Below, piece by piece: positions 1 to 24,215 of a stretch of DNA of 29,778 bases. The notes under the pieces are model-generated. The model had not been told where the DNA came from. It did no database searches and was given only the letters and a program-made list of their open reading frames with translations. Source of the stretch: Desulfurococcaceae archaeon (GTDB lineage Archaea; Thermoproteota; Thermoprotei_A; Sulfolobales; Desulfurococcaceae); contig JAWAJB010000008.1 of assembly GCA_038888155.1 (NCBI GenBank), positions 1 to 29,778 on the forward strand, in the 5' to 3' direction. Each line of letters begins with the position of its first letter. The stretch's first letter is position 1. The translations under genes were made by a program, and so were the position numbers.

Positions 1-403
1 TGTAGGATATTACCAGGTCCTCTTTACCTGAAGGGCATGATGAAATATAAAACGGAAGGGGATACTCAACAGAGGTCACCTTATTTCTTCCAATATATAA
101 TGTAAATCCTTCAATTCGTAAAATATATTTTTTATTATCTATTTTTATAATTTTAAAAATAAAATTCTTGTTAAGCTCTAAACGTTGTTCTATTTCTATA
201 ACAGAAGTTGAAAATTGTCCAATATTGCACGCGCGTCTCACGGTTGAAAGTATCGCAGTAATAATCTGATTAGCCGTAGCATCAACAACCGAAAGAGTAG
301 CTATGTTTCGTTCCATCATAATGATGTGTATAGAATATGTAGTGATCATAGCTACTGCAAGTATTGTTACCAAAACTAGAAGCAATTGAGATGGTATCTC
401 CAT
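1..403 (-). CDS. Pilin-like protein, 3' end runs off the window (not in the ORF track)
   Basis: Hand-translated from ATG at 403: MEIPSQLLLVLVTILAVAMITTYSIHIIMMERNIATLSVVDATANQIITAILSTVRRAC..., open to base 1. N-terminal hydrophobic helix as in the neighbouring pilin-like genes. AAAAATTTATCA box about 30 nt upstream. Confidence 0.7.
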   Translation of the reverse strand, partial: MEIPSQLLLVLVTILAVAMITTYSIHIIMMERNIATLSVVDATANQIITAILSTVRRACNIGQFSTSVIEIEQRLELNKNFIFKIIKIDNKKYILRIEGFTLYIGRNKVTSVEYPLPFYISSCPSGKEDLVISY

Positions 404-652
404 GGATCTCGAGATATATCACCAACACGATGTGATAAATTTTTTGATACAATTGGTGCGTAGACAGTATGCTTAGACTCTAAGTCGGTTGATAGAGTAG
501 GGATCGAATATCAACTACTACAGGCTAGAGCATCTAAAAGTTTATGAATTTTTAATAATTTTTAAACGCATTACGGACCCAGGGGAGGTGCAGTGGCGTT
601 TTCCTAAATCTGCTATCGTATTGCAACATTTACGTTACTTTCATAAAGTTCA

Positions 653-1183
653 CTAACTACGAGTTGTAATAGCGGCTTCAATGGTACAAAATGCCTTACA
701 ATAGAGGGATATCACATGGGAACCAGGTGGAACAACTAATGGTACAAATGTTATATATTTACGTTCAGAAGTAATTGATACAAAGTACTTAAGAATAAGA
801 GTATTCTTCTCAATCTTAACTTCAATTTCAAGAAAGTCACATTTTGTTCTACTTTTTAGTACAGTTTCAATATACTCTTCACTCAACGATTTTAAGTCAA
901 TACCAATGACACTTACGTAATTTTCTTGTAAATGCATGTATGAACCTGGTGGCAAGAATACGAGCGCTCTAGCCCCACCGTAACCGCTGCAGCATGAGTT
1001 GATGATTGCATCATGAACAGAGATTATACTTTCAAGCGGAGCGCTGCCGGCTGAGTAATAATTTCTAATATATCTGTTTAGAATAGAAAACGATAAAAAC
1101 ATTATTAATATGAAAATAGAAATAAAAATTACTGTCGAAACCGTTATCGAACCTTTGCTTCCCTTTAGTTGCCTAGGACACAC
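653..1183 (-). CDS. Pilin-like protein with class III signal peptide
   Basis: KGSKG/SITVSTVIFISIFILIMFLSF gives a basic leader, a Gly cleavage site and a hydrophobic helix. Likely start is GTG at 1183, overlapping the upstream TAG, rather than 1228. Confidence 0.7.
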   Translation of the reverse strand: MCPRQLKGSKGSITVSTVIFISIFILIMFLSFSILNRYIRNYYSAGSAPLESIISVHDAIINSCCSGYGGARALVFLPPGSYMHLQENYVSVIGIDLKSLSEEYIETVLKSRTKCDFLEIEVKIEKNTLILKYFVSITSERKYITFVPLVVPPGSHVISLYCKAFCTIEAAITTRS

Positions 1184-1953
1184 TAGGGTGCGGTAACATC
1201 TCTTACAGCAACTTCTCCTCTCCACCATACCGATGCACCATCATCATCAATTACTCTCACCAGAAAAACCAATAATCCCGTATCATCCCTTCCGCTAACA
1301 AGGTATTTTGGCTCGATTCCAACGTCAATTATGTACTGGTTTTGAGCCATATTTTCAGGGAGCAAGTAAACATCACTTATTTTTTTGTATAAATTATTTT
1401 CTAAAAGGTACACTTGAACTTTCACATAATTAGATGAAAAGCCTTTTAAGCTAAAATTAATACTAAGAATTTTAAAAGTAGATGTTTCCTTTATTTCAAT
1501 TTTATTAACATAAATAAAAATATTGCGTTTAAAATTAACTTGAAGTTTATATTCATCTCTAGTAATCGAAGCGATAATATTATAGTAATTGTTATTATCT
1601 TCAAAGTGTATATTTTTTGTTAATGTTATCCTAATTTGATATAATTTCTCTAGATAAAGAATTGTATATTTGATACATTCGTCGAAATAAGTTTGAGCAT
1701 TTAGATTTACATCTTCCGAATTAGCCGACTTAATTAATTGTTGATTTATAAGAATATTATTCCATTTTTTATCAGTAGCATATGCAAAACATCCTTTAAT
1801 GGTTTCATTTAGTGATAAGATTGCAACCTCCAACGCTGTAGTTTGAAACATGCGAGGCGTTATGGTTAATGAAGTAAATGCGATTACGAAGGTGATAAAA
1901 ATCGCCAAGAGAGATACGATCAGGGTTTGAGCTCGTCGCATCACATTAGTCAC
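1183..1953 (-). CDS. Pilin-like protein with class III signal peptide
   Basis: MRRA/QTLIVSLLAIFITFVIAF fits a prepilin-type leader. Overlaps both neighbours in the pilus operon. Confidence 0.7.
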   Translation of the reverse strand: MTNVMRRAQTLIVSLLAIFITFVIAFTSLTITPRMFQTTALEVAILSLNETIKGCFAYATDKKWNNILINQQLIKSANSEDVNLNAQTYFDECIKYTILYLEKLYQIRITLTKNIHFEDNNNYYNIIASITRDEYKLQVNFKRNIFIYVNKIEIKETSTFKILSINFSLKGFSSNYVKVQVYLLENNLYKKISDVYLLPENMAQNQYIIDVGIEPKYLVSGRDDTGLLVFLVRVIDDDGASVWWRGEVAVRDVTAP

Positions 1954-2380
1954 CTGAAATTGAAATAACTACTATTCTCGGTTCAAAGTAGCCATTACAA
2001 CCACTAAGTACTGCGAAGCTTGATGCTGAACTATACGAGTTAAACCCGCCACTGGCAAATGCAAAAAGCTCTGTTAAATCGCTAGCACGTAGCACGGCTA
2101 CCTTATACCCACGCCCCGGTGGAGTAAAAGCCTCTACTGCTACCCTCAAAGTCTCTCCATCAACAGTGCCGCCCTGTGAATGGTAAACTGTCTTGCATAG
2201 AACACCGCGACTCAATAATGTTCGAAGAATTGTATTCGCTTCCTCCTCGAGAAGAGGACGAGTTAGTTGCGTAGGTAGGAGGAGTATAAGCCGTAGCACC
2301 AGAGTTAGCAAAAGCACTGCTGTAATACCAGCTAGAGCTGCTTCAAGCAGCCTGACTTGCCCGCCTCTCTTCACTCCCAT
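1946..2380 (-). CDS. Minor pilin-like protein
   Basis: MGVKRGG/QVRLLEAALAGITAVLLL: basic leader, GQ site, Glu near the start of the hydrophobic helix. Confidence 0.75.
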   Translation of the reverse strand: MGVKRGGQVRLLEAALAGITAVLLLTLVLRLILLLPTQLTRPLLEEEANTILRTLLSRGVLCKTVYHSQGGTVDGETLRVAVEAFTPPGRGYKVAVLRASDLTELFAFASGGFNSYSSASSFAVLSGCNGYFEPRIVVISISGD

Positions 2381-3249
2381 ACCACCACCTCGATAAGCAC
2401 TACTACGTCATTAACTTTAGCTAAAGCGGTAACGCGGTAAAAAAGAACGTTGTCAGGCAACTTTTCCCTAAATAATACTAATGGTTCGTACAGAAATGGA
2501 TAGATGAAACTTTTTTTGCCGCAAACAATGGCGTAGGGGGGCCTGAGCAAATTACTCTTGATGAGTAAGTCTAGTGAACTTCCAAGGTTTTCCGCTTGAA
2601 GGACTTGTGAATAAGGGGTTAGATAACATGAGCTATTGAACCTGATTTTTTTATCTTCTTCAAAAATTAGCGTCGATAGGCAGATCTCGCCTTTTTCAAA
2701 GTGTATGATGTAGCAGCATTTAGAATCGATAGATGTTTGAAGGGAATCCAGATTAGAGGTAATTTCGAAGCCTAGCGCGTAGATTGAGTCTGCTGTCGCA
2801 ATAATTATTCTATCGTTAGGTGAAGACGTGAGTAGACCTTTTGCCTTAACTAGCGTAGGTAAGTTCGCTGAGGAGAAATTGACTATATAGTAAGTAACCT
2901 CTGGTTGTAATTTGTATGCTCTTTCAGTGATTTTATACAGAACATTAGGGAAAGATATAGTGATTTTCGTCTGGATTACTGCAGTATTCCCTTCTAAAAC
3001 ATTTTTATGAACATATTCATGTAAATTATTTTCCAAGAATGTTTTCATAGATTGTCGATCGTTCAGAAGCGAGGGATTCATCTCTAGTAGTAGCGCTGCA
3101 AGCTGCGAAATGGTCTCGCCCTTCGTCCTTAATCGTTCTTGGCGAGCTTCAAGTACTCTCGCATGCAATGTGGTTCGTACTCCATGGATGAAGATGGCGA
3201 GCACTAGGATAAAGCTCGTCAGGGCAATAAGGGTTTCAACCGTAGACAT
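2371..3249 (-). CDS. Pilin-like protein without a basic leader
   Basis: MSTVETLIALTSFILVLAIF: Glu at position 5 then a hydrophobic helix. Directly downstream of the platform gene. Confidence 0.6.
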   Translation of the reverse strand: MSTVETLIALTSFILVLAIFIHGVRTTLHARVLEARQERLRTKGETISQLAALLLEMNPSLLNDRQSMKTFLENNLHEYVHKNVLEGNTAVIQTKITISFPNVLYKITERAYKLQPEVTYYIVNFSSANLPTLVKAKGLLTSSPNDRIIIATADSIYALGFEITSNLDSLQTSIDSKCCYIIHFEKGEICLSTLIFEEDKKIRFNSSCYLTPYSQVLQAENLGSSLDLLIKSNLLRPPYAIVCGKKSFIYPFLYEPLVLFREKLPDNVLFYRVTALAKVNDVVVLIEVVVWE

Positions 3250-3258
3250 GCAATCCCC

Positions 3259-4980
3259 CTAAAGCACGAGGAACAGTAGCAGGATAGCCGTCATTGACAA
3301 CAGCATATCTATAATCACATAGACGAAGCCTCCTGCCAGCGTTCCATCTGTCATTTTACCCGTCATCAATCCCATTAAAATCATTGTTACAACACTCCCT
3401 GTGATAACGGTATCAACAAGTTGGGGGAGCATTTTTGGCGTTATGAGCTGTACGCCCAAACTGCCCATGAGCGTTGGGAAAGATGATGCTGCGGCATAGA
3501 ACCCTTCTGCCATCATGGCGATAGGCTCTAGCACCTGTCTTACGAGCATAGAAGTTATGCCGATCACGAGTACCGCAGTGATTAATCCAAAAATCTTCAG
3601 CGGCATAACCGACGAGCGAGCTATTCTCAATGAGTCAATAATCTCCCTTGTAACTTCAGCCACTTCGTCAAACACCTCGGGCTTTGCTCCCATCAGATCG
3701 GCTTCAACCATAAGAGTCAAACTCATCCTGCAGTACCACGAAACCTCTCTCATAACTGATTGAACCGCCTCCTCGAAGGTTCTTCCTGCCTCTAAAGCGA
3801 GAGCAATCTTCTTTATAACCTTATCTAACGCTGAACCGTAACTCCTTGTGTTTGACAGCGTGATTATTGCTAGCGATGGGGTGCTGCCTTTCTTTACCTC
3901 CTCAGCTACGTCTCTAACAAAGCTGGGCAAGGCGTAATCGATTGCTGTAAGGCGTCTCTGATCGAAGTGGTAGCGAAAGGCAGCGGGAGCGCACGTTGCT
4001 ATCGCAGCTGCTGCGATAGCAACTCCGGTCCATGGAAGGCCGCTTATCACTTCAGGCCTAGCACTAATAAGACCAAAATACCACGGTGCATATACTGCTA
4101 CAAAAACAGCCGCACCTACAGGTAGGCTGTAGGCAATCAATCGGTAGTACTTATTGTACTTGACGGGTGTCTTAGGATACATCAAGTCGATTAAGTACAC
4201 AAGCGCTAGACCGATAAGCGGGTTTACGAAAAATGAGTAGAAAATAGATTGCAGAGCTAGCTCTTCTGAAGCGAAGAGCGCGAACATCGTGTAGAGCATC
4301 ATAGGTAGTACGCCGTAAGCTATCAGTATTACATCAGCTACAAAGCTCATCCTACTAGACAAGGTTTTGTAGTTCTCTCGAACAGCGTTAAAGATGCTTC
4401 TCATCTTTTCCCGCAATACAGCGTAAATGTCGCCTCCCCGCCTCTCGATGCTTGCGCTTGAGAGCAGTAGATCCGATATTAACTGCGAGGAGACGCGCCT
4501 GCCCTCAAACTCCATAGCCTCAAGCTCGTCAACAACAAAAAGAACCCTAATTCGCGATATACGCTCAGCGATTTTGGAGAACTCTGTGAAAAGCTCCTTA
4601 TACTTCATCCTCAACCTATCGATTGCGATGTGCGGCGCAACGCCGTTAGCAGCGTACGTCGTTAGCAAAGCCATCACGTAGAGAAGTTCTCTTTCTGCTC
4701 CTCGCATATGCTCTGCTGCTCTAAAGTATGGCTCAAACAGCAAAAACAAACCAATAATGAGAGGGGCAGGAATGAGGTACGCTAAGTACCGTAACTGCTC
4801 GAGTGGGATAATGGGCTCTAAGATACCGAGCGAGAAAACAGCAACGACAAGTGAGAGAGTAGCAGAGGCTGCAGCAAGCAGTAAAAAGTTATTTAACGCC
4901 TCTCTCACGAACTCCTTTGGTGTCTTTCTTATTCCAGAAAGATAAATGTATTTTTCTAGAAAATCTTCTAAGAATTTCAT
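3259..4980 (-). CDS. Type IV pilus/T2SS membrane platform protein (TadC/PilC/ArlJ-like, two T2SSF domains)
   Basis: Two T2SSF-like cytoplasmic domains (ERELLYVMALLTTYAANG; IDYALPSFVRDVAEEVKKG) separated by multiple TM helices. Overlaps the ATPase stop by 4 nt. Confidence 0.9.
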   Translation of the reverse strand: MKFLEDFLEKYIYLSGIRKTPKEFVREALNNFLLLAAASATLSLVVAVFSLGILEPIIPLEQLRYLAYLIPAPLIIGLFLLFEPYFRAAEHMRGAERELLYVMALLTTYAANGVAPHIAIDRLRMKYKELFTEFSKIAERISRIRVLFVVDELEAMEFEGRRVSSQLISDLLLSSASIERRGGDIYAVLREKMRSIFNAVRENYKTLSSRMSFVADVILIAYGVLPMMLYTMFALFASEELALQSIFYSFFVNPLIGLALVYLIDLMYPKTPVKYNKYYRLIAYSLPVGAAVFVAVYAPWYFGLISARPEVISGLPWTGVAIAAAAIATCAPAAFRYHFDQRRLTAIDYALPSFVRDVAEEVKKGSTPSLAIITLSNTRSYGSALDKVIKKIALALEAGRTFEEAVQSVMREVSWYCRMSLTLMVEADLMGAKPEVFDEVAEVTREIIDSLRIARSSVMPLKIFGLITAVLVIGITSMLVRQVLEPIAMMAEGFYAAASSFPTLMGSLGVQLITPKMLPQLVDTVITGSVVTMILMGLMTGKMTDGTLAGGFVYVIIDMLLSMTAILLLFLVL

Positions 4981-6725
4981 TTATTATCACCTCTAATTTT
5001 GAATAACTTGCGCGGTTTACGCTGCCTCTTCGCTTTAACGATCATGCCAGGTTGAGGAATACTTTGTTTTAAGTTTACAATTTTTATATCTTGTTTCATT
5101 TTTTTAATTTCTACAATTTTAATATATGGTTTTTCTTTGCGCTGGACGTCCATAGGTGTTTCCAGTTCTTTATAGAAGAATAATGGATCTCTATAGAATT
5201 TCTCGAATAAGTTTATTAAAATATTTAATTTGGTATAACTCTGATCATTTTTAGCTTTTTCTAAAAGCCATCTTAGAAACTCTATTCTTCTCTTATATTC
5301 GTTAATTAATTCGTTTTCATTATGTATTTTATCACTGATGTTAATTATCTTTGCGGCTGATCTGGTTTTCGCGAGCTCTTCGGGAGGCACGGATTCGTAA
5401 GTATCGTTAGAAGGATTATAGCGAAAAAGTACTCTGAATACTGGTTTTCCGTCCACTAGTTCGAAGTCCGCGACTTCTCTGATGCGCCTAACTCTCTTTC
5501 CATCTTTCGTATAGACAGCGATGTACACAAGGCCGTGCAAGCTGTTAAGCGACGCTATTTCGATGCCCAAGTCCTTTAACCTTACCAGGGCTGAAGTGAA
5601 ATCATCGGCATGAATCGTAGTGATGCCACCGTGGCCTGATGAGATCTGCTGGAACCAAACCTTTGCCTCTTCCCCTCGTATCTCGTTCACTATTAGGTAC
5701 TCTACCTGATATCTTAGCATCTCCTTAACGAGGGCGAAAAGGTCGATAGAGCCTTTACCGTCTATAGAGTACGACTCTCTCGTGAACATGCGCTGCCAAT
5801 TCTGCTTCTTGACGGGCAGATTAAACTCGGGAACATCCTCTACGGTTCCCACGCGCTTATCAGGAGGAATGAAGCCACAGAGAGAGTTTGCCAAACTTGT
5901 TTTTCCTGTGCCCATACCTCCGACAATCAGTATAGGGAGCTTATGCTCAACTAGCAGCCACAGCCAGGCCCCTATCTCCGGAGTAAGCGTCCCTGAGAGC
6001 ATGTGCCTCGTAATTGTCCAAGGCTCGCTCGGGAATTTCCTAATGACAAAGCTACTGTGCTCACTGATTTCACTCATAAATGTGCAAGCAAGCCTATGCC
6101 CCCCAGGCAGTCGTGCGTTATCGATCCTAGGATTAGCCTTACTAATGCTCTTCCCAGCTTTATTCGCGAGCTTCATAACTAGCTTATCCAGCTCCTCCTC
6201 TGTGAACACGAGATTCGTTTCTAAGCGCCCCAGCTCGCTATGCAAGACCGTAACTGGCCTGTAAGGCCCGGTGCACTCAATATTCTCGAGGCTTGGGTCT
6301 CGCATCAGCGGATCTAGGGCACCAAATCGGTCAAATGCGAGTTCTCTGATAATTAAGTACTGAAGCTCAGGGCGCCTCAACCCCCCATCCTCCAGGTACT
6401 TAATCAGGGCTTCCTCTGTGGGTACACCCTCTAGTACGTAAATTAACTCCATTGCACGCTTCTCTAATTCACGTAGCTCACCTTCGGTAACTGATGGATC
6501 ACATACAATATAGAGACGACGAGGAGAAGTTATCTCCTCTCCGATGATGATGTTGACAAATCTGTCGATGTTGTAACTACGAATAACCCGTATTTTTCGT
6601 ACATCCTCAAACTTCCATACCTTTATCTTCACTTCGGGAAAGGCGTCGGCGCCCTCGCGCCCTTTCACCCTCTCACGAGAGCTGCTCGAGAAAGGTTCTT
6701 TTAAGCCAAATAAACCCATACACAT
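4977..6725 (-). CDS. Type II/IV secretion ATPase (VirB11/PilB/ArlI family)
   Basis: Walker A GGMGTGKT, Asp box TVEDVPE, Walker B YLIVNEIRG, His box GHGGITTIHA, plus LDPLMRDPSLENI and FVIRKF motifs. Confidence 0.95.
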   Translation of the reverse strand: MCMGLFGLKEPFSSSSRERVKGREGADAFPEVKIKVWKFEDVRKIRVIRSYNIDRFVNIIIGEEITSPRRLYIVCDPSVTEGELRELEKRAMELIYVLEGVPTEEALIKYLEDGGLRRPELQYLIIRELAFDRFGALDPLMRDPSLENIECTGPYRPVTVLHSELGRLETNLVFTEEELDKLVMKLANKAGKSISKANPRIDNARLPGGHRLACTFMSEISEHSSFVIRKFPSEPWTITRHMLSGTLTPEIGAWLWLLVEHKLPILIVGGMGTGKTSLANSLCGFIPPDKRVGTVEDVPEFNLPVKKQNWQRMFTRESYSIDGKGSIDLFALVKEMLRYQVEYLIVNEIRGEEAKVWFQQISSGHGGITTIHADDFTSALVRLKDLGIEIASLNSLHGLVYIAVYTKDGKRVRRIREVADFELVDGKPVFRVLFRYNPSNDTYESVPPEELAKTRSAAKIINISDKIHNENELINEYKRRIEFLRWLLEKAKNDQSYTKLNILINLFEKFYRDPLFFYKELETPMDVQRKEKPYIKIVEIKKMKQDIKIVNLKQSIPQPGMIVKAKRQRKPRKLFKIRGDNK

Positions 6726-6743
6726 TTTGTAAAGAAGTAAGAT

Positions 6744-6832
6744 TAAAATTCTTTTTGCAGTACTTGCATCGAAGATTGTTCTATAGTGGCAGCAGTGACT
6801 GCAGAAGCGCGGAAACAGGCAAAAGTTTAAAA
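6744..6832. promoter_or_regulatory. Divergent BRE/TATA-like promoters for the ATPase operon (-) and the major pilin (+)
   Basis: Minus-strand AAAAGAATTTTAA at about 6744-6756 precedes the ATPase start. Plus-strand AAAAGTTTAAAA at 6821-6832 lies about 22 nt before GTG 6854. Confidence 0.55.
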
Positions 6833-6853
6833 GTAAAAAATGCTAGAATTAAC

Positions 6854-7273: not shown

Positions 7274-7372
7274 ATCAAATAAAGATCAGAAACATATACA
7301 AAATATTTTTGAACCCATATAAAACGGCTGTACAGTAAAACATATATACGACTCAATGAGACTTACTTCACT

Positions 7373-11086: not shown

Positions 11087-11090
11087 AGGT

Positions 11091-12220: not shown

Positions 12221-12234
12221 CTCCTAAAAACTTT

Positions 12235-13221: not shown

Positions 13222-14191
13222 CTATCCTCTCGAGAATTTCTTCCTCTTTTCGGAAAAGATTGACAAATTTTGATAGTAAAACTTCAGCTTCTTTACTATA
13301 AATATCAGAATCTGTAAGAGAATTCAGAATTTTTTCAAAAAATACTCTTTTTGTTACTATATTGTTGATTAATGTTGCGCAATCTTTTTTAGATAAGTAA
13401 AAGATTTCAGCTTCTTCCTTTAAAGTTTCTATCATTTGTGATAACGCATTCAGCTGTTTCTCGAGTTGTTCCTTCAGGTTAGTGAGCTCTGGAGTTGCTC
13501 CTTCAATTAGTATCCTAAGGTTAATTTCTTCAAGACTTTGTTCCAAAAGTTCAATGCTCTTATAAATATTTTGAATTCCTTTTTTCATTACAATTTTTCT
13601 GCTTTTAGGTATTTGCATGAATATCGTAAGTAAAGATGAAACAATGCGAATTTCATCATCTGATAAATTTGTTTTGTCTTTTATATAAAATTTTAGTTTA
13701 TCAAGGTATAGAAAGAGTAAATCTATCTCTTGCAGTATAGTTTTGTCTATTTCTGCTGAGCTAATATAGAATGAAAAGACTTCAGAAATATTTTTAACTA
13801 AAGTACTCTTAATTTCAACGAGGGTGGTAATATCTGTGGATACCAACTGCTGTAGTTCAGGTGTATTTATATAGTTTAAAAGTAAAGATTTGAGTCTAGA
13901 AATTTCCTTTTTTACATCATCGGGCGATGTTTTTCTTAATCCCTCCATAACTTCAATATAGAGGGCTTCAGCGTTTAGGAGCTCCTCGAAAATGTTTCTG
14001 AAAATGCTTTCTGGTTCAATGAAAGATACTTGAATTAAGTTTTCTTGCTCAAGAGTTGTTAACGCTCTAAGAACATCAGATTTACTCAAGCCTGTCAACT
14101 TTGCTATGTCACTAATTTTCCCTCTATATGTTTTCTCTGATGAGCTTAGAACAATATACTTGAGCACTTTAACTGCAGTTTCATCAAGCAT
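13202..14191 (-). CDS. Winged-HTH domain fused to a long coiled-coil region
   Basis: N-terminal KISDIAKLTGLSKSDVLRALTTLEQENLIQV wHTH signature. Remainder is heptad-rich and helical. Confidence 0.8.
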   Translation of the reverse strand: MLDETAVKVLKYIVLSSSEKTYRGKISDIAKLTGLSKSDVLRALTTLEQENLIQVSFIEPESIFRNIFEELLNAEALYIEVMEGLRKTSPDDVKKEISRLKSLLLNYINTPELQQLVSTDITTLVEIKSTLVKNISEVFSFYISSAEIDKTILQEIDLLFLYLDKLKFYIKDKTNLSDDEIRIVSSLLTIFMQIPKSRKIVMKKGIQNIYKSIELLEQSLEEINLRILIEGATPELTNLKEQLEKQLNALSQMIETLKEEAEIFYLSKKDCATLINNIVTKRVFFEKILNSLTDSDIYSKEAEVLLSKFVNLFRKEEEILERIANLLPE

Positions 14192-14192
14192 T

Positions 14193-15611
14193 TTAATCCC
14201 CTCTCAACTTAAACAGCAAGAAAATTAAGAGAAGCACTTGTATCATGATTATTGCAAGTAGTATTACCAATGGCGTTAATTCAATCGTGCTCTTTACCTC
14301 GTAAATCGGAGGTGAAGGCATAATAATGGATATTGCTAAATCACCTAGCGGGGAAATATCCAATAAGAGGTTAAGTTCGCATGCGTTAATTGTGATGTTG
14401 ACCGGGATTCGTGGGAAATGTGTAATCACATATGTTATACCCTGCTTCTGAATGGGCACCACAGCTCCGTTGATATAAACTTTAGGGGGACAGTGCTCGT
14501 CTGTCCGCAAAATTATGTCAGAGAAATTAAGGCGAACAGTGTAATAATAATTCGAGTCAATTGTTATGTTTCTCTCCCATACCTTTAGTACAAGACCAGA
14601 AAAATTGTAAAAAATAGATATAGAATAATTTCCTTCAGTGAGACAAACTATCGGTTTAGATGATTTTACTTTAGATGAATTAACTATTAGAAATACATTT
14701 TCATCAGCGTTTTCTAAACTCATTCTTAACGTGTATATTCTGGGGCGACAGGTGTAAAAGATATTCTCTAACCTCTCATTACACGTCGCGTGTGGGCTAT
14801 CCTCTATGAAGTACTCGACCGTGCAGGATTCTCGCCTAGGTTGTATCCAGCGGTTTGGTGATATTAACGCAAGCTGGGGGGGTTTACTGCTTAACGTAAA
14901 GCTGCCGCATGTTAAGCGGACAGAAAGGTTGCATGAAGGGTCTACACCTAAGACGTGGGTTAAGTTAATCATTTGTGGCACCACAAGTAACGGTAATTCG
15001 AGAGGTTCTCCACCAGTAAGATCAGCTAGATTAGCGCTTGCTAGGAGAGATTCGCCGTAGTATACTTCCATGATCCATGGATAGGTGTGGTTTTCGTCGC
15101 TAGCCACCGGTAGATACAAGCCTGAGCCTCCTAAGACGAACCTGAGCGGATCGTCGCTATCACCTAGGTGAATCGTGATCGATAATGAGGCAAACAATGG
15201 GTCGTTAATCACCGAGGCTACTTTCGTGAGGTGTGGAGTAACCACGTACTCTGATGTTAAGTTGTAGAACTTAATATCCAAGTTGGATAGATTTTTTAGC
15301 TTTAAGTAAACTACAAAGAAATTTTCTTTTGTAGAATTAACCGTAAAACCTAAGCTCCAGTTGCGGTCATAGAAGTAATATTCTGCTGACAAGTTGGCGA
15401 GCATCGTTCCATTAAAAAAGTTCATGAAGTGGGAGGCGTTAAATACGATCCAACCTATTTTAAAGAAAAGATTATTTAGTACTTCAAGCGGGAGAGAATT
15501 GCCATCTATGTCGAGAAGCTGAACTGTAACATTGTTCTCCGGAATCGCATAGACGAGCGTAAGTAGAGACGAGAGCAGAGCCATCCCGATCGCGAGAAGG
15601 ATCCTACGCAT
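14193..15611 (-). CDS. Type I membrane-anchored surface glycoprotein
   Basis: Signal peptide, beta-rich ectodomain with about 17 N-x-S/T sequons and several Cys, C-terminal TM helix and a short KLRGD tail. Confidence 0.8.
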   Translation of the reverse strand: MRRILLAIGMALLSSLLTLVYAIPENNVTVQLLDIDGNSLPLEVLNNLFFKIGWIVFNASHFMNFFNGTMLANLSAEYYFYDRNWSLGFTVNSTKENFFVVYLKLKNLSNLDIKFYNLTSEYVVTPHLTKVASVINDPLFASLSITIHLGDSDDPLRFVLGGSGLYLPVASDENHTYPWIMEVYYGESLLASANLADLTGGEPLELPLLVVPQMINLTHVLGVDPSCNLSVRLTCGSFTLSSKPPQLALISPNRWIQPRRESCTVEYFIEDSPHATCNERLENIFYTCRPRIYTLRMSLENADENVFLIVNSSKVKSSKPIVCLTEGNYSISIFYNFSGLVLKVWERNITIDSNYYYTVRLNFSDIILRTDEHCPPKVYINGAVVPIQKQGITYVITHFPRIPVNITINACELNLLLDISPLGDLAISIIMPSPPIYEVKSTIELTPLVILLAIIMIQVLLLIFLLFKLRGD

Positions 15612-16054
15612 TACGCTTCCCCCTTCACAACGACGTACACCCGACGAATTAGCAAAATACTATCTAAAACAGGAGTTTGAAACGAAAATGAAATTTCTAT
15701 AAGGCGTTTTCCGTCACTAAAGCGTCCAATCTCCCTTACTATTACCCAGTTAGACCTGGATTCGTTAGTAAGGAGAGCGTAAACATTAGCTTGAGCACTA
15801 GTAAGCTGGCTCATTGCGAAAATGTTCAGAAAGATTATGAAGATAAGTGGAAGATAAAGAATGAGAGAGAGAAGGAAGAATTTGAAGTATCTTCTTTTCT
15901 CGAGTTCGAAGATTATGGGAAATACCGCTCGCCTACCGTCTCCTTGCCTGTAATCACCGATGATTAGATACCTTTTATCGAAATCTGGTGGAGGTTTTTC
16001 TCTTTTTTCTCGCTGCCGCACTCTATACCTTATCTCCCCTTCCGTGTTCTCCAT
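15611..16054 (-). CDS. Single-pass membrane protein, unknown function
   Basis: Likely start ATG 16054 (MENTEG) with GGTGA upstream. Central TM helix FFLLSLILYLPLIFIIFLNIFAM after a charged N-terminal region. Confidence 0.7.
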   Translation of the reverse strand: MENTEGEIRYRVRQREKREKPPPDFDKRYLIIGDYRQGDGRRAVFPIIFELEKRRYFKFFLLSLILYLPLIFIIFLNIFAMSQLTSAQANVYALLTNESRSNWVIVREIGRFSDGKRLIEISFSFQTPVLDSILLIRRVYVVVKGEA

Positions 16055-16058
16055 CTTC

Positions 16059-16526
16059 TCACCTTCCCCTTTTAATGACTTCTTTGAAGTGTACTCTTTC
16101 ATAGCTATTCCCTCTGATAGTGAAAATATCGTACTCCCCTGTTAATGGGTCCATTACCAACGCCACATGGTAAGATTGTGAAAAGCATCTTCGATGGGTC
16201 TCTAGGTCTACGCTGGAAAGGAAGCAGCCATATCCAGGGTGACTATGAGCCCATCCCACTACAAGCAATTTGCGTTTTTCAAGAATTCCTGAAATTTCCC
16301 CCAAGCTACCTTCAAGAGGCACAACAAACGTCTCACTTGCGTCAGCCTTCAGTGGGAGATAGTCGATCACTTCGACCCAATCCTTTCCCTTGTACACATA
16401 CCTGTCCCCCAAGAGAAAACCTATGGCCTCTTTCGGCAAAGTCCTAACAAAGTGCTTGAAGATTTTTTTCAGGACCTTGTAATGGATGTACACGTCGGCA
16501 ATTTCAATTTCTGTCTCATTTTTCAT
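16059..16526 (-). CDS. JAMM/MPN+ metalloprotease (Rpn11-like deubiquitinase)
   Basis: PKEAIGFLLG (catalytic Glu) and VVGWAHSHPGYGCFLSSVD (HxH-x7-S-x2-D), close to the eukaryotic Rpn11 motif VVGWYHSHPGFGCWLSxVD. Confidence 0.95.
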   Translation of the reverse strand: MKNETEIEIADVYIHYKVLKKIFKHFVRTLPKEAIGFLLGDRYVYKGKDWVEVIDYLPLKADASETFVVPLEGSLGEISGILEKRKLLVVGWAHSHPGYGCFLSSVDLETHRRCFSQSYHVALVMDPLTGEYDIFTIRGNSYERVHFKEVIKRGR

Positions 16527-17109
16527 CGTTTCTCCCCCCTCTTTTTCTTACAATTTTTGGAGGCGGATTTAGCCTGAAGTACTCAGCTGCTCGCATGCAA
16601 ATAGGTGGGTTGTGTATCGGGTCATCTACGTCCGGATTTTCTATCAGGAGCTTCACGCCCTCTACAACGTTTAGCAAGCTGAGCGTTGTGGTCCATTTTA
16701 CTAAGGCACGCCAGCAGATAACCCCAGTACCGCCGTAATCCTTCCCGGGAGCGATGTTCGGGTGAAATATCGGTGTAATCCACACTATTCTAATCGGAGC
16801 ACCCAATTTCCTCTCCGAGGGGAAGGGATAGTTGCGCAACACGTAGAGATCAAAAGTATGATGATTTAACGGAACTATTTTCTCGTTAGCATCTAAAACG
16901 TATCCTTGCGCTTCTACTTCGATTCTGTATTTCATGAATGCGGGTACTTTTTCTAAACCATAGACAGTTGGAACTTCTATCTCTTTAAATTCACGTTTTT
17001 TAGATATATCATAGAATTTTTGTTTTTCTAAAATCTTAGAAGTTGTTTTTTCGAGTTCCTTTTCTTCATTGTTAAGGCGATTTATAAGCGCTTCTAAAGT
17101 CAGCATCAC
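16516..17109 (-). CDS. Ubiquitin-conjugating enzyme E2 (UBC fold)
   Basis: NYPF...PIRIVWITPIFHPNI...GVICW...W...LLIENPDVDDP: HPN motif, catalytic Cys, downstream Trp and the NP-x-x-x-D-P motif. Start overlaps the Ubl stop. Confidence 0.93.
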   Translation of the reverse strand: MMLTLEALINRLNNEEKELEKTTSKILEKQKFYDISKKREFKEIEVPTVYGLEKVPAFMKYRIEVEAQGYVLDANEKIVPLNHHTFDLYVLRNYPFPSERKLGAPIRIVWITPIFHPNIAPGKDYGGTGVICWRALVKWTTTLSLLNVVEGVKLLIENPDVDDPIHNPPICMRAAEYFRLNPPPKIVRKRGGRNDEK

Positions 17110-17390
17110 TACCCGCCTACAGGTCGCGCGATGAGCTGAAGGCGGTCACCGTCCCTTATACCCAGCTCAGCTAACGTTTTTTCAAAGTGAGCTGTACCGA
17201 ACTCTTTTGCGCCTCCAGGGAAGACAAGCCTATACCCTAAATCAGGATTTTCCAAGTCTATCTTGAGCGCGTTGGCAACCGTTCTGAAAACATCTCCTAG
17301 TCGTGTAGCAGGAGAGACCTCAAGTTCTACCTCATCGCCGGTTAAAACGGAGATAATGGTAATCCGCCATGTCCCTCTTGCAGAGGCCAC
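17109..17390 (-). CDS. Ubiquitin-like protein (beta-grasp) with a free C-terminal GG
   Basis: VLTGDEVELEVSP, YRLVF and KTLAELGIRDGDRLQLIARPVGG-stop align by eye with ubiquitin TLTGKTITLEVEP, QRLIF and [23 protein letters not shown]. Confidence 0.92.
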   Translation of the reverse strand: MASARGTWRITIISVLTGDEVELEVSPATRLGDVFRTVANALKIDLENPDLGYRLVFPGGAKEFGTAHFEKTLAELGIRDGDRLQLIARPVGG

Positions 17391-17412
17391 GAGATCTCCA
17401 TAATTAAGACTA

Positions 17413-17428
17413 AGGATAAAAAGTTTTT
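17413..17428 (-). promoter_or_regulatory. BRE/TATA-like promoter of the Ubl-E2-JAMM operon
   Basis: Minus-strand AAAAACTTTTTATCC about 25 nt upstream of the Ubl start. Confidence 0.55.
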
Positions 17429-17441
17429 GCTGGAATTTGAG

Positions 17442-17798
17442 CTAAGAAACCGGAGTTGAGTCAGTGCACTGTGTATCACAACGCCGAAGGTTAAGAATCC
17501 GTTGGGCGGTCCTCAGCTTATCCCTGTATTGGAGGTGTAAACGAGCGTAAGTTAAGTAATCTATGTGGCCTTCCGCAAACAACTCGAATAACATATGGAG
17601 GCGGTTGCTGTAATTTTCGATCTCTCTTTCGACTAAATGGGCTAGATCACGTACAGCTACTATCTTCGGGCTGACTGTTGAAGTACTATAAACCTTACAT
17701 TTCCAGAATTCTTTCAAGCAAAGGCTAGAATCAGGCTTCTTTCGTGCCAACATGCATGATTTTTCCAAGAATTTTTTCCTAAAAAACGGGCATGTCAT
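17442..17798 (-). CDS. Small Cys4 metal-binding domain fused to a helical hairpin
   Basis: CPFF...C...C...CKVY at the N-terminus, then LFELFAEGHIDYLTYARLHLQY. GAAAACTTTATAG box about 23 nt upstream. Confidence 0.7.
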   Translation of the reverse strand: MTCPFFRKKFLEKSCMLARKKPDSSLCLKEFWKCKVYSTSTVSPKIVAVRDLAHLVEREIENYSNRLHMLFELFAEGHIDYLTYARLHLQYRDKLRTAQRILNLRRCDTQCTDSTPVS

Positions 17799-17846
17799 GA
17801 TAAACTTATATTTTTCACAACTATAAAGTTTTCGGCAATCGTGTGA

Positions 17847-20135
17847 TTATCCGCTGTACATTAGTTGAGTTGCCTCCGCTATTGTCTTAAGGGCGTTCTC
17901 TATATTATCTATCTCCTCTATTACGCGTCTAAGCTTGGTTTCGTATTCGTCTCTCAATCTTGAGTATGCTCTTGCGCTTGCCCTATCTTTATACTGTTCT
18001 AACTTGCTCAAATATTCATTGAGTTTTTTCCTCTCCTCCTCAAGCTTATTTTTTTCGCTATAAAGCTTAGTAGCGAGATTAGACATTTCATCGTATAGTC
18101 TGATCCTGAGAGCGTTCAGTTTTTTCAGCGCGCTTTCAGGATCTCCTTTAAGGTAAATGCTTCTGCATGCACTAATCTCTTCTCCGCTGCTTTCAAGAAA
18201 GTGCATCATTTCGCGGACACCAGTCACACTGTAAAGGGGTCTGAGTGCAGAGAGCATTCCGTCCACACTGCTGGATATCACCCTGCATAGGTTGACAAAC
18301 TCGCAGGCAGCTCGAACCACCTGTTCTGGAAGAATTCCCGAAAGTTTCTCTGTCAACTCGTCGCAGCTCGTTCCTGCCGAGATAGCTCTTTCTATGCCTC
18401 TCCATACGTTTGTCTTCATTCGGACGTAAAAGACTCCCGCAATGCCACCAAGGATTATGCTGCTAATAGTTGTCACAATGAGCAGCACGTTTGTAGCTGC
18501 TCTTACGTTCACCGTTACGGGATCAGTGACGCATTTATCGTAGGGTCCCGAAGGGGGGACCGCTACGCTGAACCTATGGCCTCCAGCCCCCCTCACGATT
18601 AGCCTTAGGGTGTCGGTGGGAGGTCTAAGGATCGTCTCTGAGCGACCATCGGGGAGAGTGTGACTGACGTTTAAGGATGGCAACATAGTTAGAACATCGT
18701 TTGTTACATCACTTCCATTTAGCGTATCCAGTATACGAAGCTCGAGCAATATTTCTCCCCCCTCCTCTACCTCCCTTTGAAGCGCCCTTAATTGGCAGCT
18801 GATGGGTCTAGCTTGCACGCAAAGCTGTCCGACGCGGACCTTTTTAGAAGGGTAGTATCCTTGAGGGGCGATTTCCACGTAGACATCGTAGCAACCGGGT
18901 ACGCGCAACTGAATCGAGACTAAGGTACGACGCTCAGTAGAATCAAAGCGTACACTATCGATCGCCCTGTCTCCATCGCCCACCACCACTACACCGCTTA
19001 GGCCACCACTTCGATCAACCTCTACAGAGACTTCAGCCCGCTCTAATGCATAAACCAACCCTGTCCGTAACGTAGCCACTAGATTAAAGTCACGAAAGCC
19101 TACCGTGAGAACTTCAAGGTCGCTCCCCCTCATGCATATCACGATTACAGCGGGAACATCTGTGTAACGGGTGGCTGGAATCAAGGCCAGTACACTGTCA
19201 GCGAACTCAAGGAGTGGTCCAAACCAGCTACCTTCGATTCTCTCGCGGAAGAATAGGCATCCGTCATCCGTCAGAGCAAAATACCCCTGGCTTGCTACTA
19301 TGAAAGCTAAACCAGCGCGTAGCGCACTCACACCCCCCCTCTCACTAATCATTGTGCCATCTCCTAGCACGAGGTGCTCCACGCCATCGACCTTTACAAC
19401 GCCTATTGGCCGTGAAGGTTTTATGTTGCCTAACGATTTGATAAATAAGGTTTCGGGGTTAAGCAGCAGAACACTCTTGTCCGCCAGGATCATGTAGATG
19501 ACTCGCTCGCCCTCCATTGAAAAAACAATGTCTGCGGTCAAGCTGTAACTCAAGCTAGTCCAGTTTTTCCCTGTAAAGACAGCTATCGTGAAACTGTCTA
19601 GATCTAACATAATGATGTGCTTCCACGTGTTAAGGGGTCTCGCGTTAAAAGTGAGGGCAATAGTTTTCCCTTCAAAGATGTCCAGCAGCATAGGTTTACC
19701 GCAGTCGATAAGGACGAACTTACTGTAGACCCTACGAATACTAAGACCTTGACAAGTGCACAAGGTTCTGGAGCCCCCGCGGAGGCTGTATAACTCCAGA
19801 GAATCCTCTCTCTGCAGCAGTAAATCCTCCTCAAGAACGTAGATAGCCTTTAGACCCCGAGGGTCTATTTTCCCAGTCCGCAACCCCTCTGATGTCACCA
19901 CGAGAACGGTTCCATCTCTGCTGACAGCAGCAAAGGATCTAGTGAAGATATTAAATTCGTGGAGAAAGACGTCTTTGAACCTGTAAACGCTAAGAGGCTC
20001 TACGCGCTGGCCCATCGCAACAGCAGAATGTAGAAGGCATGCTACGACTAAAACTAGAAGGTAAATTAATCCTATACGTTTGGAAGCCCTTTTCTCCGAA
20101 ACTGCTGGTATGAAGAAAAGCTTATTAGGAAGCAC
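17847..20135 (-). CDS. Receptor-like single-pass membrane protein (762 aa)
   Basis: Signal peptide, short beta-strand repeats (propeller-like), Ig-like segments, TM helix VLLIVTTISSIILGGIAGVFYV and a cytoplasmic helical/coiled-coil tail of about 190 aa. Confidence 0.78.
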   Translation of the reverse strand: MLPNKLFFIPAVSEKRASKRIGLIYLLVLVVACLLHSAVAMGQRVEPLSVYRFKDVFLHEFNIFTRSFAAVSRDGTVLVVTSEGLRTGKIDPRGLKAIYVLEEDLLLQREDSLELYSLRGGSRTLCTCQGLSIRRVYSKFVLIDCGKPMLLDIFEGKTIALTFNARPLNTWKHIIMLDLDSFTIAVFTGKNWTSLSYSLTADIVFSMEGERVIYMILADKSVLLLNPETLFIKSLGNIKPSRPIGVVKVDGVEHLVLGDGTMISERGGVSALRAGLAFIVASQGYFALTDDGCLFFRERIEGSWFGPLLEFADSVLALIPATRYTDVPAVIVICMRGSDLEVLTVGFRDFNLVATLRTGLVYALERAEVSVEVDRSGGLSGVVVVGDGDRAIDSVRFDSTERRTLVSIQLRVPGCYDVYVEIAPQGYYPSKKVRVGQLCVQARPISCQLRALQREVEEGGEILLELRILDTLNGSDVTNDVLTMLPSLNVSHTLPDGRSETILRPPTDTLRLIVRGAGGHRFSVAVPPSGPYDKCVTDPVTVNVRAATNVLLIVTTISSIILGGIAGVFYVRMKTNVWRGIERAISAGTSCDELTEKLSGILPEQVVRAACEFVNLCRVISSSVDGMLSALRPLYSVTGVREMMHFLESSGEEISACRSIYLKGDPESALKKLNALRIRLYDEMSNLATKLYSEKNKLEEERKKLNEYLSKLEQYKDRASARAYSRLRDEYETKLRRVIEEIDNIENALKTIAEATQLMYSG

Positions 20136-20614: not shown

Positions 20615-20631
20615 ACGCAGCCGCGTCTTAG

Positions 20632-24210: not shown

Positions 24211-24215
24211 AAATA

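Follow-up and report, generated by a model that had tools for sequence, protein, structure and literature searches.

Eukaryote-type ubiquitylation genes interleaved with a type IV pilus-like locus in uncultured Thermoprotei

Complete archaeal ubiquitylation operons have been described in Caldiarchaeum subterraneum, where a Ubl, an E2-like and an E1-like protein and a small RING finger protein are encoded together with an adjacent Rpn11-like JAMM (Nunoura et al. 2011, PMC3082918). The operon was later reconstituted (Hennell James et al. 2017, PMC5654768), and pili are absent from the main text of both papers (PMC3082918, PMC5654768). Crenarchaeal type IV pilus systems have been surveyed as well; according to that census, Desulfurococcales loci hold 3 to 4 untraceable extra components, proposed to be a minor pilin set, and its main text contains none of the words ubiquitin, ThiF or JAB (Makarova et al. 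2016, PMC4858521). Our literature search found no paper on a ubiquitin system linked to a pilus locus. In bacteria, Ubl/E1/E2/JAB systems (Bil, CBASS Cap2/Cap3) serve in antiviral defence. The Ubl YukD (EsaB) is encoded in type VII secretion loci, and its conjugation is not known.

The window, which is the whole stretch of 29,778 nucleotides of a Desulfurococcaceae archaeon analysed here, combines type IV pilus-like machinery with a complete eukaryote-type ubiquitin set, interleaved in tight mixed operons. All genes that the earlier note had named were found where it had placed them, among them the ATPase, the platform, six further pilin-like genes and a large secreted protein beside the RING-E1 run. 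The pilus side consists of a FlaI/UpsE-like ATPase, a TadC/UpsF-like platform, one clear archaeal pilin and the six further pilin-like genes:

2-403, minus strand: pilin-like ORF truncated at the window edge, with an N-terminal hydrophobic helix, GC3 0.26 and no Pfam/NCBIfam family
653-1228, minus strand: pilin-like ORF with KGSITV... ahead of a hydrophobic stretch, no family match
1183-1953, minus strand: pilin-like ORF with a class III-like signal, RRA/QTLIV...
1946-2380, minus strand: pilin-like ORF, KRGGQVRLLEAALAG...
2371-3249, minus strand: pilin-like ORF with an N-terminal hydrophobic helix only
3259-4980, minus strand: polytopic platform protein of the TadC/FlaJ/UpsF family (Pfam T2SSF, 33.4 bits)
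4977-6725, minus strand: FlaI/UpsE-type type IV filament assembly ATPase (Pfam T2SSE, 76.4 bits)
6755-7273, plus strand: archaeal type IV pilin, RRKG/ISGVVVAVLL..., matching the class III rule
10322-11086, minus strand: ORF10, beta-rich with an N-terminal anchor, from a small family specific to the lineage; only its architecture is pilin-like

The platform scored 68.9, 64.2 and 28.1 bits against the UpsF, BasF and ArlJ equivalog models, all far under the cut-offs, and only 8 relatives outside its own cluster were found at E<=1e-5. The ATPase reached 228 bits against the FlaI model, for which the cut-off is 550. The product of 6755-7273 matched the UpsA model below cut-off (E 2.7e-6) and the solved archaeal pilins and flagellins 8fk7, 8fjs, 8tib and 6nav with E values from 0.0012 (8fk7) to 0.8. 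It is probably the major pilin, and its true start probably lies about 25 codons inside the listed ORF. Among the seven pilin-like candidates of the window, it alone showed sequence similarity to known pilins. A hydrophobic segment within the first 60 residues was present in all seven candidates, ORF10 included, and the class III signal rule, a FlaFind-like version of our own, fitted four of the seven.

Like the crenarchaeal Ups pili, the Bas bindosome and the clade 4 loci of Makarova et al. 2016 (PMC4858521), the window has an ATPase and a TadC-like platform, and it likewise shares with crenarchaeal type IV pilus loci a PilA-type pilin and a set of poorly conserved minor pilin-like proteins. 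However, its pilus genes reach no Ups, Bas or archaellum equivalog cut-off, its ATPase carries a C-terminal tail rich in K/R, and the locus contains a full ubiquitin system. The latter comprises a Ubl ending in GG, E1, E2, a C4HC3 RING and a JAMM, all with intact catalytic motifs:

11091-11990, minus strand: E1, a ThiF-type adenylating enzyme (ThiF, 159.9 bits)
11984-12220, minus strand: small C4HC3 RING finger protein, candidate E3 (Prok-RING_1, 31.8 bits, cut-off 29.1)
16059-16526, minus strand: JAMM/Rpn11-like isopeptidase (JAB, 53.9 bits; E...HSHx7Sx2D intact)
16516-17109, minus strand: E2 with a UBC fold (UQ_con, 29.4 bits), the HPN motif and the catalytic Cys
17109-17390, minus strand: Ubl, its C-terminus exactly ...RPVGG

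The E1 scored 82.6 bits against the Ube1 subfamily and contains the GAGALGNE motif and the invariant Cys residues. The best solved relatives of the E2 are the eukaryotic UBE2T and UBE2N (E ~3e-4). In the PDB, the Ubl matched entries named 'Ubiquitin-like protein' (6fj7, 6fnn, 2mqj) at E 6e-5 to 1e-4, followed by ubiquitin at about 1e-3. The same five components make up the Caldiarchaeum operon, and the ligand spacing of the RING (C-x2-C-x12-C-x2-C-x4-H-x2-C-x9-C-x2-C) is nearly that of the srfp motif of Caldiarchaeum CSUB_C1477 (PMC3082918). In contrast to that operon, the ubiquitin genes of the window lie in two runs about 4 kb apart, between genes for pilin-like, membrane and wHTH proteins with which they are interleaved, and beside those for the ATPase and platform of the type IV pilus. 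The window's Ubl lacks a propeptide and terminates at GG, whereas the pro-ubiquitin of Caldiarchaeum has nine extra residues (PMC3082918, PMC5654768).

Like YukD/EsaB, the Ubl of the window is a beta-grasp protein from a locus whose export machine is embedded in the membrane and driven by an ATPase, and its match to the YukD model was near-threshold (26.2 bits, cut-off 27). The window encodes a type IV filament system, whereas YukD/EsaB belongs to a type VII secretion system. Since the Ubl of the window ends in GG and is accompanied by E1, E2, RING and JAMM, it is expected to be conjugated covalently.

Both ubiquitin runs are tightly packed. As the earlier note had described, the minus-strand run of RING, E1 and ORF10 has a 7-nt overlap between RING and E1 if E1 starts at GTG, followed by a 4-nt gap between E1 and ORF10. 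Since E1 has 296 aa in its database copy, its start may instead be the ATG 9 nt downstream, which leaves a 2-nt gap between RING and E1 in place of the overlap. The other run does continue from Ubl, E2 and JAMM into two membrane proteins and a wHTH-helical protein, with spacings of -1 (Ubl/E2), -11 (E2/JAMM), -44 (JAMM/163-aa protein), -1 (163-aa/472-aa protein) and +1 nt (472-aa/wHTH-helical protein); all pairs but the last overlap, by 1 to 44 nt. These and the remaining genes of the locus, which add membrane-anchored or secreted glycoprotein-like proteins to the surface machine, are:

7373-10321, plus strand: 982-aa secreted protein with a signal peptide, long coiled-coil stretches and low GC3
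12235-13221, plus strand: 328-aa cytoplasmic protein, helical or coiled-coil, low GC3, no family
13202-14191, minus strand: wHTH (IclR/MarR-like) followed by ~270 aa of helices (HTH_IclR, 24.9 bits), last gene of the Ubl-E2-JAMM run
14193-15611, minus strand: type I membrane protein of 472 aa with numerous N-x-S/T sites between a signal peptide and a C-terminal TM
15611-16102, minus strand: 163-aa single-pass membrane protein, its cytoplasmic N-terminus rich in K/R/E
17442-17798, minus strand: 118-aa protein upstream of Ubl, with a Cys-rich N-terminus and no family
17847-20135, minus strand: 762-aa membrane protein with a large extracellular part, one TM near residue 550 and a cytoplasmic coiled-coil tail

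The 472-aa protein possibly contains PEGA/CarboxypepD_reg-like beta-sandwiches (Atlas lead, 0.88-0.91), and the 762-aa protein gave only sub-threshold coiled-coil matches in family searches. The GC3 of the locus is a mosaic: several pilin-like, coiled-coil and wHTH genes have values of 0.26-0.35, compared with 0.41-0.54 for the core genes.

The nearest named relatives of the module are MAGs labelled Thermofilum sp. and Desulfurococcaceae/Desulfurococcales. In one Desulfurococcales MAG locus (L001), the platform (minus strand), six pilin-like genes, E1, Ubl-GG, E2 and JAMM lie in this order on one strand, on which genes for a small TM protein and for an anchored coiled-coil protein of 950 aa come next; nearby on the opposite strand, RING is overlapped by a wHTH-helical gene by 4 nt. 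The parts are those of the window in a different gene order, and protein identities are 45% for E1, 39% for E2, 34% for Ubl, 32% for RING, 31% for JAMM and 26% for the platform. The L001 Ubl passes the Pfam ubiquitin cut-off. No ATPase was found within 10 kb of the L001 E1. Between the two loci, the wHTH-helical proteins have no detectable sequence similarity, and the pilin-like proteins none except one non-significant N-terminal match.

Thirteen further contigs were found, by exact contig-size match, to carry an E1 homologue with an ATPase or platform homologue (sizes 8636, 11555, 12948, 16420, 18645, 20806, 20982, 21186, 22030, 24380, 32806, 35105 and 196412), where the number expected by chance is about 0.1 for contigs >8 kb and about 0.6 across all sizes. 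An ORF10 homologue (P0199) and an E1 (P0007) lie on contigs of identical size, 51788; for the long contigs (196412, 51788, 35105 and 32806) a shared contig does not prove adjacency. The accessions of the Thermofilum sp. E1 (MCC6064513.1) and platform (MCC6064508.1) are five apart, as are the two genes in the window. The link is kept across distant relatives, and no fewer than ten E1 clusters (at 90% identity) show it.

The earlier note had proposed a survey of whether E1, E2 and Ubl homologues stay linked to pilus genes. They do in one Thermoprotei E1 clade, which includes the rearranged locus at 26-45% protein identity, but not outside it, where none of the 27 E2-bearing loci (Micrarchaeota, Thermoplasmata, Bathyarchaeia, bacteria) has pilus genes; the ubiquitin system therefore does not need a pilus. 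In the E1 tree, all linked E1s fall within this clade of 37 rows, itself supported at an SH-aLRT of only 86, where they make up 12 rows over four or more starred subclades and P0013, the other 25 being rows with no context information. None of the 70 rows outside the clade is linked, and 17 of these are readable loci with no pilus genes. Among 79 other loci outside the clade, pilus machinery within 10 kb was found in a single one (L012), where it is not adjacent.

The conserved interleaving supports a functional association of the ubiquitin and pilus genes. We consider it moderately probable that the locus is a conserved, lineage-specific module of uncultured Thermoprotei, in which a eukaryote-type ubiquitylation set is interleaved with, and functionally dedicated to, a type IV pilus-like machine. 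Its most likely function would be to ubiquitylate, in a reversible way, a cytoplasmic component of the surface machine or the regulator of that machine. ATP-dependent ubiquitin conjugation is possible only in the cytoplasm, and the Ubl targets would therefore be lysines on a cytoplasmic part of the apparatus, to which E1, E2 and RING would attach the Ubl and from which JAMM would take it off again. The candidates for modification are the ATPase (at its K/R-rich C-terminal tail), the platform (in its cytoplasmic domains), the 163-aa membrane protein (at its K-rich N-terminus), the 762-aa protein (in its cytoplasmic tail) and the wHTH-helical protein. The outcome may be a reversible switch that acts on the filament or secretion machine, in its assembly, activity or turnover, or on the expression of its genes. 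The roles that the earlier note had put forward, in assembly, turnover, cargo, budding or the defence of a virus receptor, are hypothetical. Since no proteasome, Cdc48 or ESCRT gene is present in the window, we weakly prefer a regulatory over a degradative tag. A complete eukaryote-like ubiquitin system together with a pilus-like machine in uncultured heat-loving archaea hints at possible targets of archaeal ubiquitin.

Part of the linkage is explained by shared descent, since it occurs within a single E1 clade only. That the two gene sets are neighbours by descent only, a general-purpose ubiquitin system (e.g. for proteostasis) having landed in a variable cell-surface gene island of the clade ancestor and stayed there without acting on the pilus machine, is rather unlikely. 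The genes are interleaved beyond mere adjacency: a pilin-like gene follows 4 nt after E1, JAMM is continued by two membrane-protein genes, and the six pilin-like genes of L001 lead up to E1. The link also outlived both a rearrangement and divergence to 26-45% identity, and it recurs in the ten or more E1 clusters mentioned above. This reading would nevertheless fit the 27 loci with no pilus genes and the GC3 mosaic, which is typical of a plastic island, and the ubiquitylation targets named above are candidates only.

It is unlikely that the cascade mainly controls expression, RING and E2 modifying the operon-encoded wHTH-helical protein(s), which would then switch transcription of the surface-structure genes. 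The wHTH-helical genes, at the end of the Ubl-E2-JAMM operon in the window and overlapping RING in L001, are placed in keeping with this reading, and ArnR-type regulators occur in crenarchaeal archaellum loci according to the census (Makarova et al. 2016, PMC4858521). An ArnR1-like archaellum regulator was also an Atlas match of the window protein (score 0.80, a lead only). However, the two wHTH proteins show no detectable similarity in sequence, the window gene may be a replaceable cassette since its GC3 of 0.26 looks foreign, and its AF2 single-sequence model, all-helical with a pLDDT of 47, was unusable.

A conflict system, in which by analogy to the bacterial operons of Ubl, adenylating E1, E2 and JAB isopeptidase the cascade would defend against viruses using the filament as receptor or tag incoming viral proteins, has little support and is very improbable: PADLOC, which includes Bil and CBASS Cap2/Cap3 models, matched only the generic adenylation domain of E1 (E1-E2 defence models) and, through weak JAB models, the JAMM (BilC, E 8e-6), and low-GC3 variable cassettes suggest an arms race, but E2, Ubl, RING and the other 25 window proteins scanned had no PADLOC match, the E2 is a stand-alone, eukaryote-like UBC type and not a Cap2-type fusion, a RING E3 is present, the context is one of archaeal surface-structure genes, no telling PHROG match was obtained, a tblastn search of 50,697 phage or virus records found nothing for the E2, and these searches gave no sign of a virus, plasmid or known defence system in the window.

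ORF10 has 8 matches among 1.84 billion representatives. Its AF2 model (pLDDT 86.2) consists of an N-terminal helix and a beta-rich domain and matched no solved pilin or other structure in the PDB or BFVD at E<=0.001. The N-terminus of the protein (MPSRAVEA...) is conserved, and the 3' end of the gene abuts the convergent 982-aa ORF base to base.

The ubiquitin-like genes and the type IV pilus-like genes of the window are interleaved, as mapped from a six-frame ORF listing and from Pfam and NCBIfam scans of 30 ORFs. The features are as follows.

2-403, 653-1228, 1183-1953, 1946-2380 and 2371-3249, minus strand: five pilin-like ORFs forming the left-hand run (2-403 is cut by the window edge)
3259-4980, minus strand: TadC/UpsF-like platform protein (T2SSF, 33.4 bits)
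4977-6725, minus strand: FlaI/UpsE-like ATPase (T2SSE, 76.4 bits)
6755-7273, plus strand: pilin with the class III signal RRKG/ISGVVVAVLL, divergent from the ATPase
7373-10321, plus strand: secreted coiled-coil protein of 982 aa
10322-11086, 11091-11990 and 11984-12220, minus strand: ORF10 (predicted pilin-like), E1 and RING, one run
12235-13221, plus strand: helical ORF between the two ubiquitin runs
16059-16526, 16516-17109 and 17109-17390, minus strand: JAMM, E2 and Ubl, within the second run
13202-14191, minus strand: wHTH-helical protein, last gene of the second run

Read along the minus strand, the second run consists of a 762-aa membrane protein, a 118-aa protein, Ubl, E2, JAMM, two membrane proteins of 163 and 472 aa and the wHTH-helical protein. 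The RING-E1-ORF10 run converges on the 982-aa gene base to base, and the intergenic spacing inside both ubiquitin runs ranges from a 44-nt overlap to a 4-nt gap. For two genes the start codon is in doubt. In the database, E1 is 296 aa long, so that its true start may be an ATG lying 9 nt within the listed ORF (11981-11990), which would leave a 2-nt gap to RING instead of the 7-nt overlap. Met17 may likewise be the start of the 163-aa ORF (16054-16102), with a 4-nt gap to JAMM rather than the 44-nt overlap.

Judged by their conserved motifs, the ubiquitin components appear to be real and look active. Four of them were above the Pfam cut-offs: ThiF for E1 (159.9 bits), UQ_con for E2 (29.4 bits), Prok-RING_1 for RING (31.8 bits) and JAB for JAMM (53.9 bits). 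E1 has the nucleotide loop GAGALGNE and the invariant cysteines. E2 has the HPN motif and the catalytic Cys, and its closest solved relatives are the eukaryotic UBE2T and UBE2N. The JAMM metal site (E...HSHx7Sx2D) is intact, and the RING ligands follow C-x2-C-x12-C-x2-C-x4-H-x2-C-x9-C-x2-C, a spacing nearly that of the Caldiarchaeum small RING finger protein in the main text of PMC3082918. The Pfam match of Ubl (YukD) was slightly under the cut-off. Ubl is homologous to the Ubl of L001, a locus from a Desulfurococcales MAG, which is itself above the Pfam ubiquitin cut-off. Among solved structures, the window Ubl is closest to PDB chains labelled 'Ubiquitin-like protein' (E 6e-5), with ubiquitin next. 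This beta-grasp Ubl has the C-terminal di-glycine of a Caldiarchaeum-type system, a cascade shown to function in vitro (PMC5654768), and its ORF ends exactly in ...RPVGG and then the stop. Unlike that system, the genes do not form one compact operon. RING-E1 and Ubl-E2-JAMM are two runs with about 4 kb of other genes between them in the window, while E1-Ubl-E2-JAMM is contiguous in L001 with RING 5 kb off.

The ATPase and platform genes are encoded together with a 4-nt overlap, and both passed the Pfam cut-offs (T2SSE and T2SSF). All of the equivalog scores fell short: FlaI 228 vs 550, BasE 189 vs 1000, UpsF 68.9 vs 400, BasF 64.2 vs 1300, ArlJ 28.1 vs 400 and UpsA 27.6 vs 130. No FlaF/G/H/X-type archaellum accessory was matched in the Pfam and NCBIfam scans of the window. 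With matches at the Pfam level but not at the equivalog level, the machine is therefore a crenarchaeal type IV filament system in its own right, distinct from the Ups pilus, the Bas bindosome and the archaellum. The pilin at 6755-7273 has a class III signal peptide. It shows weak similarity to UpsA (E 2.7e-6) and, among solved archaeal pilins and flagellins, to 8fk7 (E 0.0012) and then 8tib, 8fjs and 6nav. The other six were called pilin-like from an N-terminal hydrophobic helix alone. Three of these six, and thus four of the seven candidates overall, fit a FlaFind-like class III rule in a version drawn up for this analysis. No prepilin peptidase (Peptidase_A24) encoded in the window was found by the Pfam scan, and such a missing gene is common for pilus loci of this kind. 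ORF10 belongs to a tiny family, with 8 matches in 1.84 billion representatives and a conserved N-terminus (MPSRAVEA...). Its AF2 model (pLDDT 86.2, pTM 0.76) has a helix at 4-30, a second helix at 38-54 and then a beta-rich domain, an architecture that is pilin-like as modeled. Foldseek returned 0 matches to this model at E<=0.001 in PDB (best TM 0.16) and BFVD.

A total of 2368 relatives of E1 were found at E<=1e-10, the closest of those with a taxon name being from Desulfurococcaceae and Desulfurococcales MAGs. A genome-contig scan with an alignment of 40 E1s and one peptide pattern gave at least 80 loci. Among the 80 loci listed, E2 was present in 27 by phmmer (24 after non-overlapping gene picking), a platform homologue was found only in L001 and an ATPase homologue only in L012. 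Profile HMMs built from the homologues had the same outcome, with the addition of TadC in L012 and a weak 27-bit match in another locus, L049. In L012, which is from Thermoplasmata, the ATPase and TadC lie 4.4 to 7 kb from E1 with unrelated housekeeping-type genes between, and no E2, Ubl or JAMM was found; this linkage was set aside as coincidence. L001 is the only fetched locus of the window's E1 clade, and the two were read directly. The genes of L001 are as follows.

4408-6222, minus strand: platform protein
6329-9886: six pilin-like genes, three of the six with RRG/I class III signals
9956-10810: E1
10861-11115: Ubl ending in GG
11157-11699: E2
11672-12163: JAMM, followed by a small TM protein and then a 950-aa anchored coiled-coil protein
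17326-17688, opposite strand to the E1-Ubl-E2-JAMM genes: RING, overlapping the wHTH-helical gene 16538-17329

Between L001 and the window, the identities are 45% for E1, 39% for E2, 34% for Ubl, 32% for RING, 31% for JAMM and 26% for the platform. There is no ATPase within 10 kb in L001, and BLASTP of the unassigned window proteins against the L001 ORFs gave nothing significant.

Beyond these two loci, gene contexts were inferred from shared contig sizes. As a proxy, the size of the longest contig carrying each matched protein was compared across five match sets (E1; platform, 9 proteins at E<=1e-5; ATPase, 68 at E<=1e-20; ORF10; and cluster members). Among the matches listed, 13 contig sizes recurred exactly between an E1 homologue and a homologue of the ATPase or the platform. 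Chance alone would yield about 0.1 for contigs >8 kb and about 0.6 when all sizes are counted; on long contigs, the same contig does not mean adjacency. The matching E1s fall into eight 90%-identity clusters (P0003, P0004, P0005, P0011, P0013, P0019, P0053 and P0064) that are 42-67% identical to the window E1. A further E1, P0007 (62% identical), and an ORF10 homologue have a contig size of 51788 nt in common and are both named Desulfurococcaceae archaeon, and an 11474-nt contig size is common to the ORF10 homologue P0201, a platform homologue and an ATPase homologue. The accession numbers of a Thermofilum sp. E1 (MCC6064513.1) and platform (MCC6064508.1) differ by five, and the corresponding window genes are five genes apart; the spacing agrees if accession order follows gene order in these records. 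Since most contigs are short and sizes were compared among the matches listed, the lack of a shared size is uninformative.

All linked E1s fell within one 37-row clade (SH-aLRT 86; 97 for the enclosing 62-row clade) in a quick IQ-TREE of 107 E1s, which comprised the window, P0002-P0089 and 18 locus E1s and left out P0090-P0120 and the other loci. The linked rows, 12 of the 37, are the window/P0002-P0011 group, P0019, P0053/P0064, L001/P0036 and P0013, and the remaining 25 carry no context information. Outside the clade, 0 of 70 rows were linked, and 17 of the 70 are readable loci without pilus genes, from Micrarchaeota, Thermoplasmata, Bathyarchaeia and one actinobacterium. Hence, the linkage of ubiquitin to pilus genes put forward in the earlier note held within this E1 clade and failed in the 17 readable loci outside it, so that prokaryotic ubiquitin operons in general do not share the pilus association. 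The relatives carry MAG-level labels (Thermofilum sp., Desulfurococcaceae, Thermoprotei). Within the clade, the association is an old one and was retained when the gene order changed. Mere co-inheritance in a plastic surface island, the main rival to a functional link, is rather unlikely beside this retention.

The composition of the locus is mosaic. GC3 is 0.26-0.35 in four of the pilin-like ORFs, in the gene for the 982-aa protein and in both helical ORFs (window 2-2380, 7373-10321 and 12235-14191), and 0.41-0.54 in the ATPase, platform, ORF8, ORF10, E1, RING, JAMM, E2 and Ubl. The low-GC3 genes are compositionally foreign to the core, which suggests exchanged or fast-evolving cassettes in a conserved frame. 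Such a mosaic is compatible with the replacement of cassettes at a locus for surface structures or recognition, and it does not decide between the functional readings. To the right, the plus strand of 20153-27662 encodes a series of proteins (153, 1192, 406, 147 and 570 aa) predicted to be secreted or anchored, with solely sub-threshold Ig-like or MG2 and coiled-coil matches. The surface-protein island therefore reaches past the right edge of the ubiquitin-pilus locus. Matches to WXG100, YwqH, Hrs_helical, syntaxin, EssB and DUF445 were below the cut-offs and were set aside as compositional (coiled coil). Four overlapping plus-strand ORFs follow at 27887-29777, where GC climbs from 0.50 to 0.63. 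ORF 28305-28790 matches positions 160-286 of the DUF1616 profile and the next ORF, 28730-29338, positions 4-119; together they resemble a neighbouring pair of DUF1616 membrane-protein genes, perhaps with a frameshift.

We favor functional coupling, in which the machine or its regulator would be tagged reversibly for regulation, and consider it somewhat probable. A tentative and more doubtful proposal is that, in this clade, the eukaryote-like E1-E2-RING-JAMM set serves solely to regulate a membrane-embedded type IV filament or secretion machine in a reversible way, by tagging the lysine-rich cytoplasmic tail of the ATPase or of an associated membrane protein. Ubl is predicted to be conjugated by E1, E2 and E3 and removed by JAMM. 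Conjugation requires ATP and is therefore cytoplasmic, so the tag must land on a cytoplasmic surface. Candidate acceptors would be the ATPase through its K/R-rich C-terminal tail, the platform through its cytoplasmic domains, the 163-aa membrane protein, whose gene directly follows JAMM, through its K-rich N-terminus, the 762-aa protein through its cytoplasmic coiled-coil tail, and the wHTH-helical protein. The ATPase tail (about 90 codons) is common to orthologues down to about 41% identity (P0131-P0151). Its last 90 residues contain 19-29 K+R in 21 of the 22 orthologues listed (10 in P0144), compared with 11-18 in eight more distant FlaI-like matches listed. Such a tail might accept ubiquitin or else bind membranes or nucleic acids.

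Control could instead pass through the wHTH protein, which we regard as improbable. The predicted complex of RING with the wHTH-helical protein had a median of 0.33, vs a mark of 0.34, without alignments, and was given no weight in either direction. The single-sequence AF2 model of the wHTH-helical protein (pLDDT 47.1) was too poor for a fold search. BLASTP detected no similarity between the wHTH proteins of the window and L001, nor between 12235-13221 and 13202-14191. An antiviral conflict is very improbable: PADLOC matched only the E1 adenylation region (best E 2.8e-16, partial) and, weakly, JAB/BilC (E 8e-6), with no match for E2, Ubl or RING, and the locus differs from the Bil (BilA/B/C/D) and Cap2 E1-E2 fusion models of bacterial Ubl defence operons. 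PADLOC, PHROGs and tblastn of E2 against phage records ruled out a known defence system or virus. A known plasmid was also ruled out, as the ATPase matches in plasmid records were all about 33% identity or less, and so was an integrated element, as the window contains no tRNA gene, no Rfam family and no integrase-like family among its Pfam matches.

No description of a ubiquitin-pilus link was found in the full-text literature on archaeal ubiquitin together with pili or pilin, a search that excluded supplements and most subscription journals. The words 'ubiquitin', 'ThiF' and 'JAB' are absent from the main text of the archaeal T4P census (PMC4858521), and 'pili' from the main texts of PMC5654768 and PMC3082918. 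The locus joins two known kinds, a ubiquitin system and a class of filament machine, in a conserved union for which this search found no earlier report. It adds an unrecognised accessory module to the crenarchaeal type IV pilus catalogue and places eukaryote-type ubiquitin systems in Thermoprotei labelled Thermofilum/Desulfurococcales, beyond Aigarchaeota and Asgard archaea. Because the ubiquitin genes are embedded in a conserved way among type IV pilus-like genes, the candidate substrates are few and specific, and they can be tested by recombinant reconstitution although the organisms are uncultured. The embedding also points to a phenotype, the formation of filaments or surface structures. 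If the proposal of a dedicated regulator is true, a cell-surface organelle or membrane protein complex would for the first time be under ubiquitin control in a prokaryote, and an archaeal ubiquitin system would have its first class of natural substrates. The arrangement would also be a possible forerunner of eukaryotic ubiquitin-dependent membrane-protein control.

Two other loci of the scan were noted as well. L026:8972-14132, from a Solirubrobacterales MAG, encodes a 205-aa unassigned ORF (8972-9589), a short ORF that is Ubl-like by eye, E1 (395 aa), E2, JAMM and then two proteins of about 325 aa. Both of the latter carry a RING-like motif, CxxC...H..C, at the N-terminal end and a single TM segment, so that the locus looks like a bacterial full cascade with putative membrane-anchored RING proteins. 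L031:1036-4811, from Bathyarchaeia, encodes a 530-aa JAMM with a TM segment, an 80-aa ORF that is Ubl-like by eye, E2 and an E1 of 417 aa with what looks like a second Ubl domain at its N-terminus.
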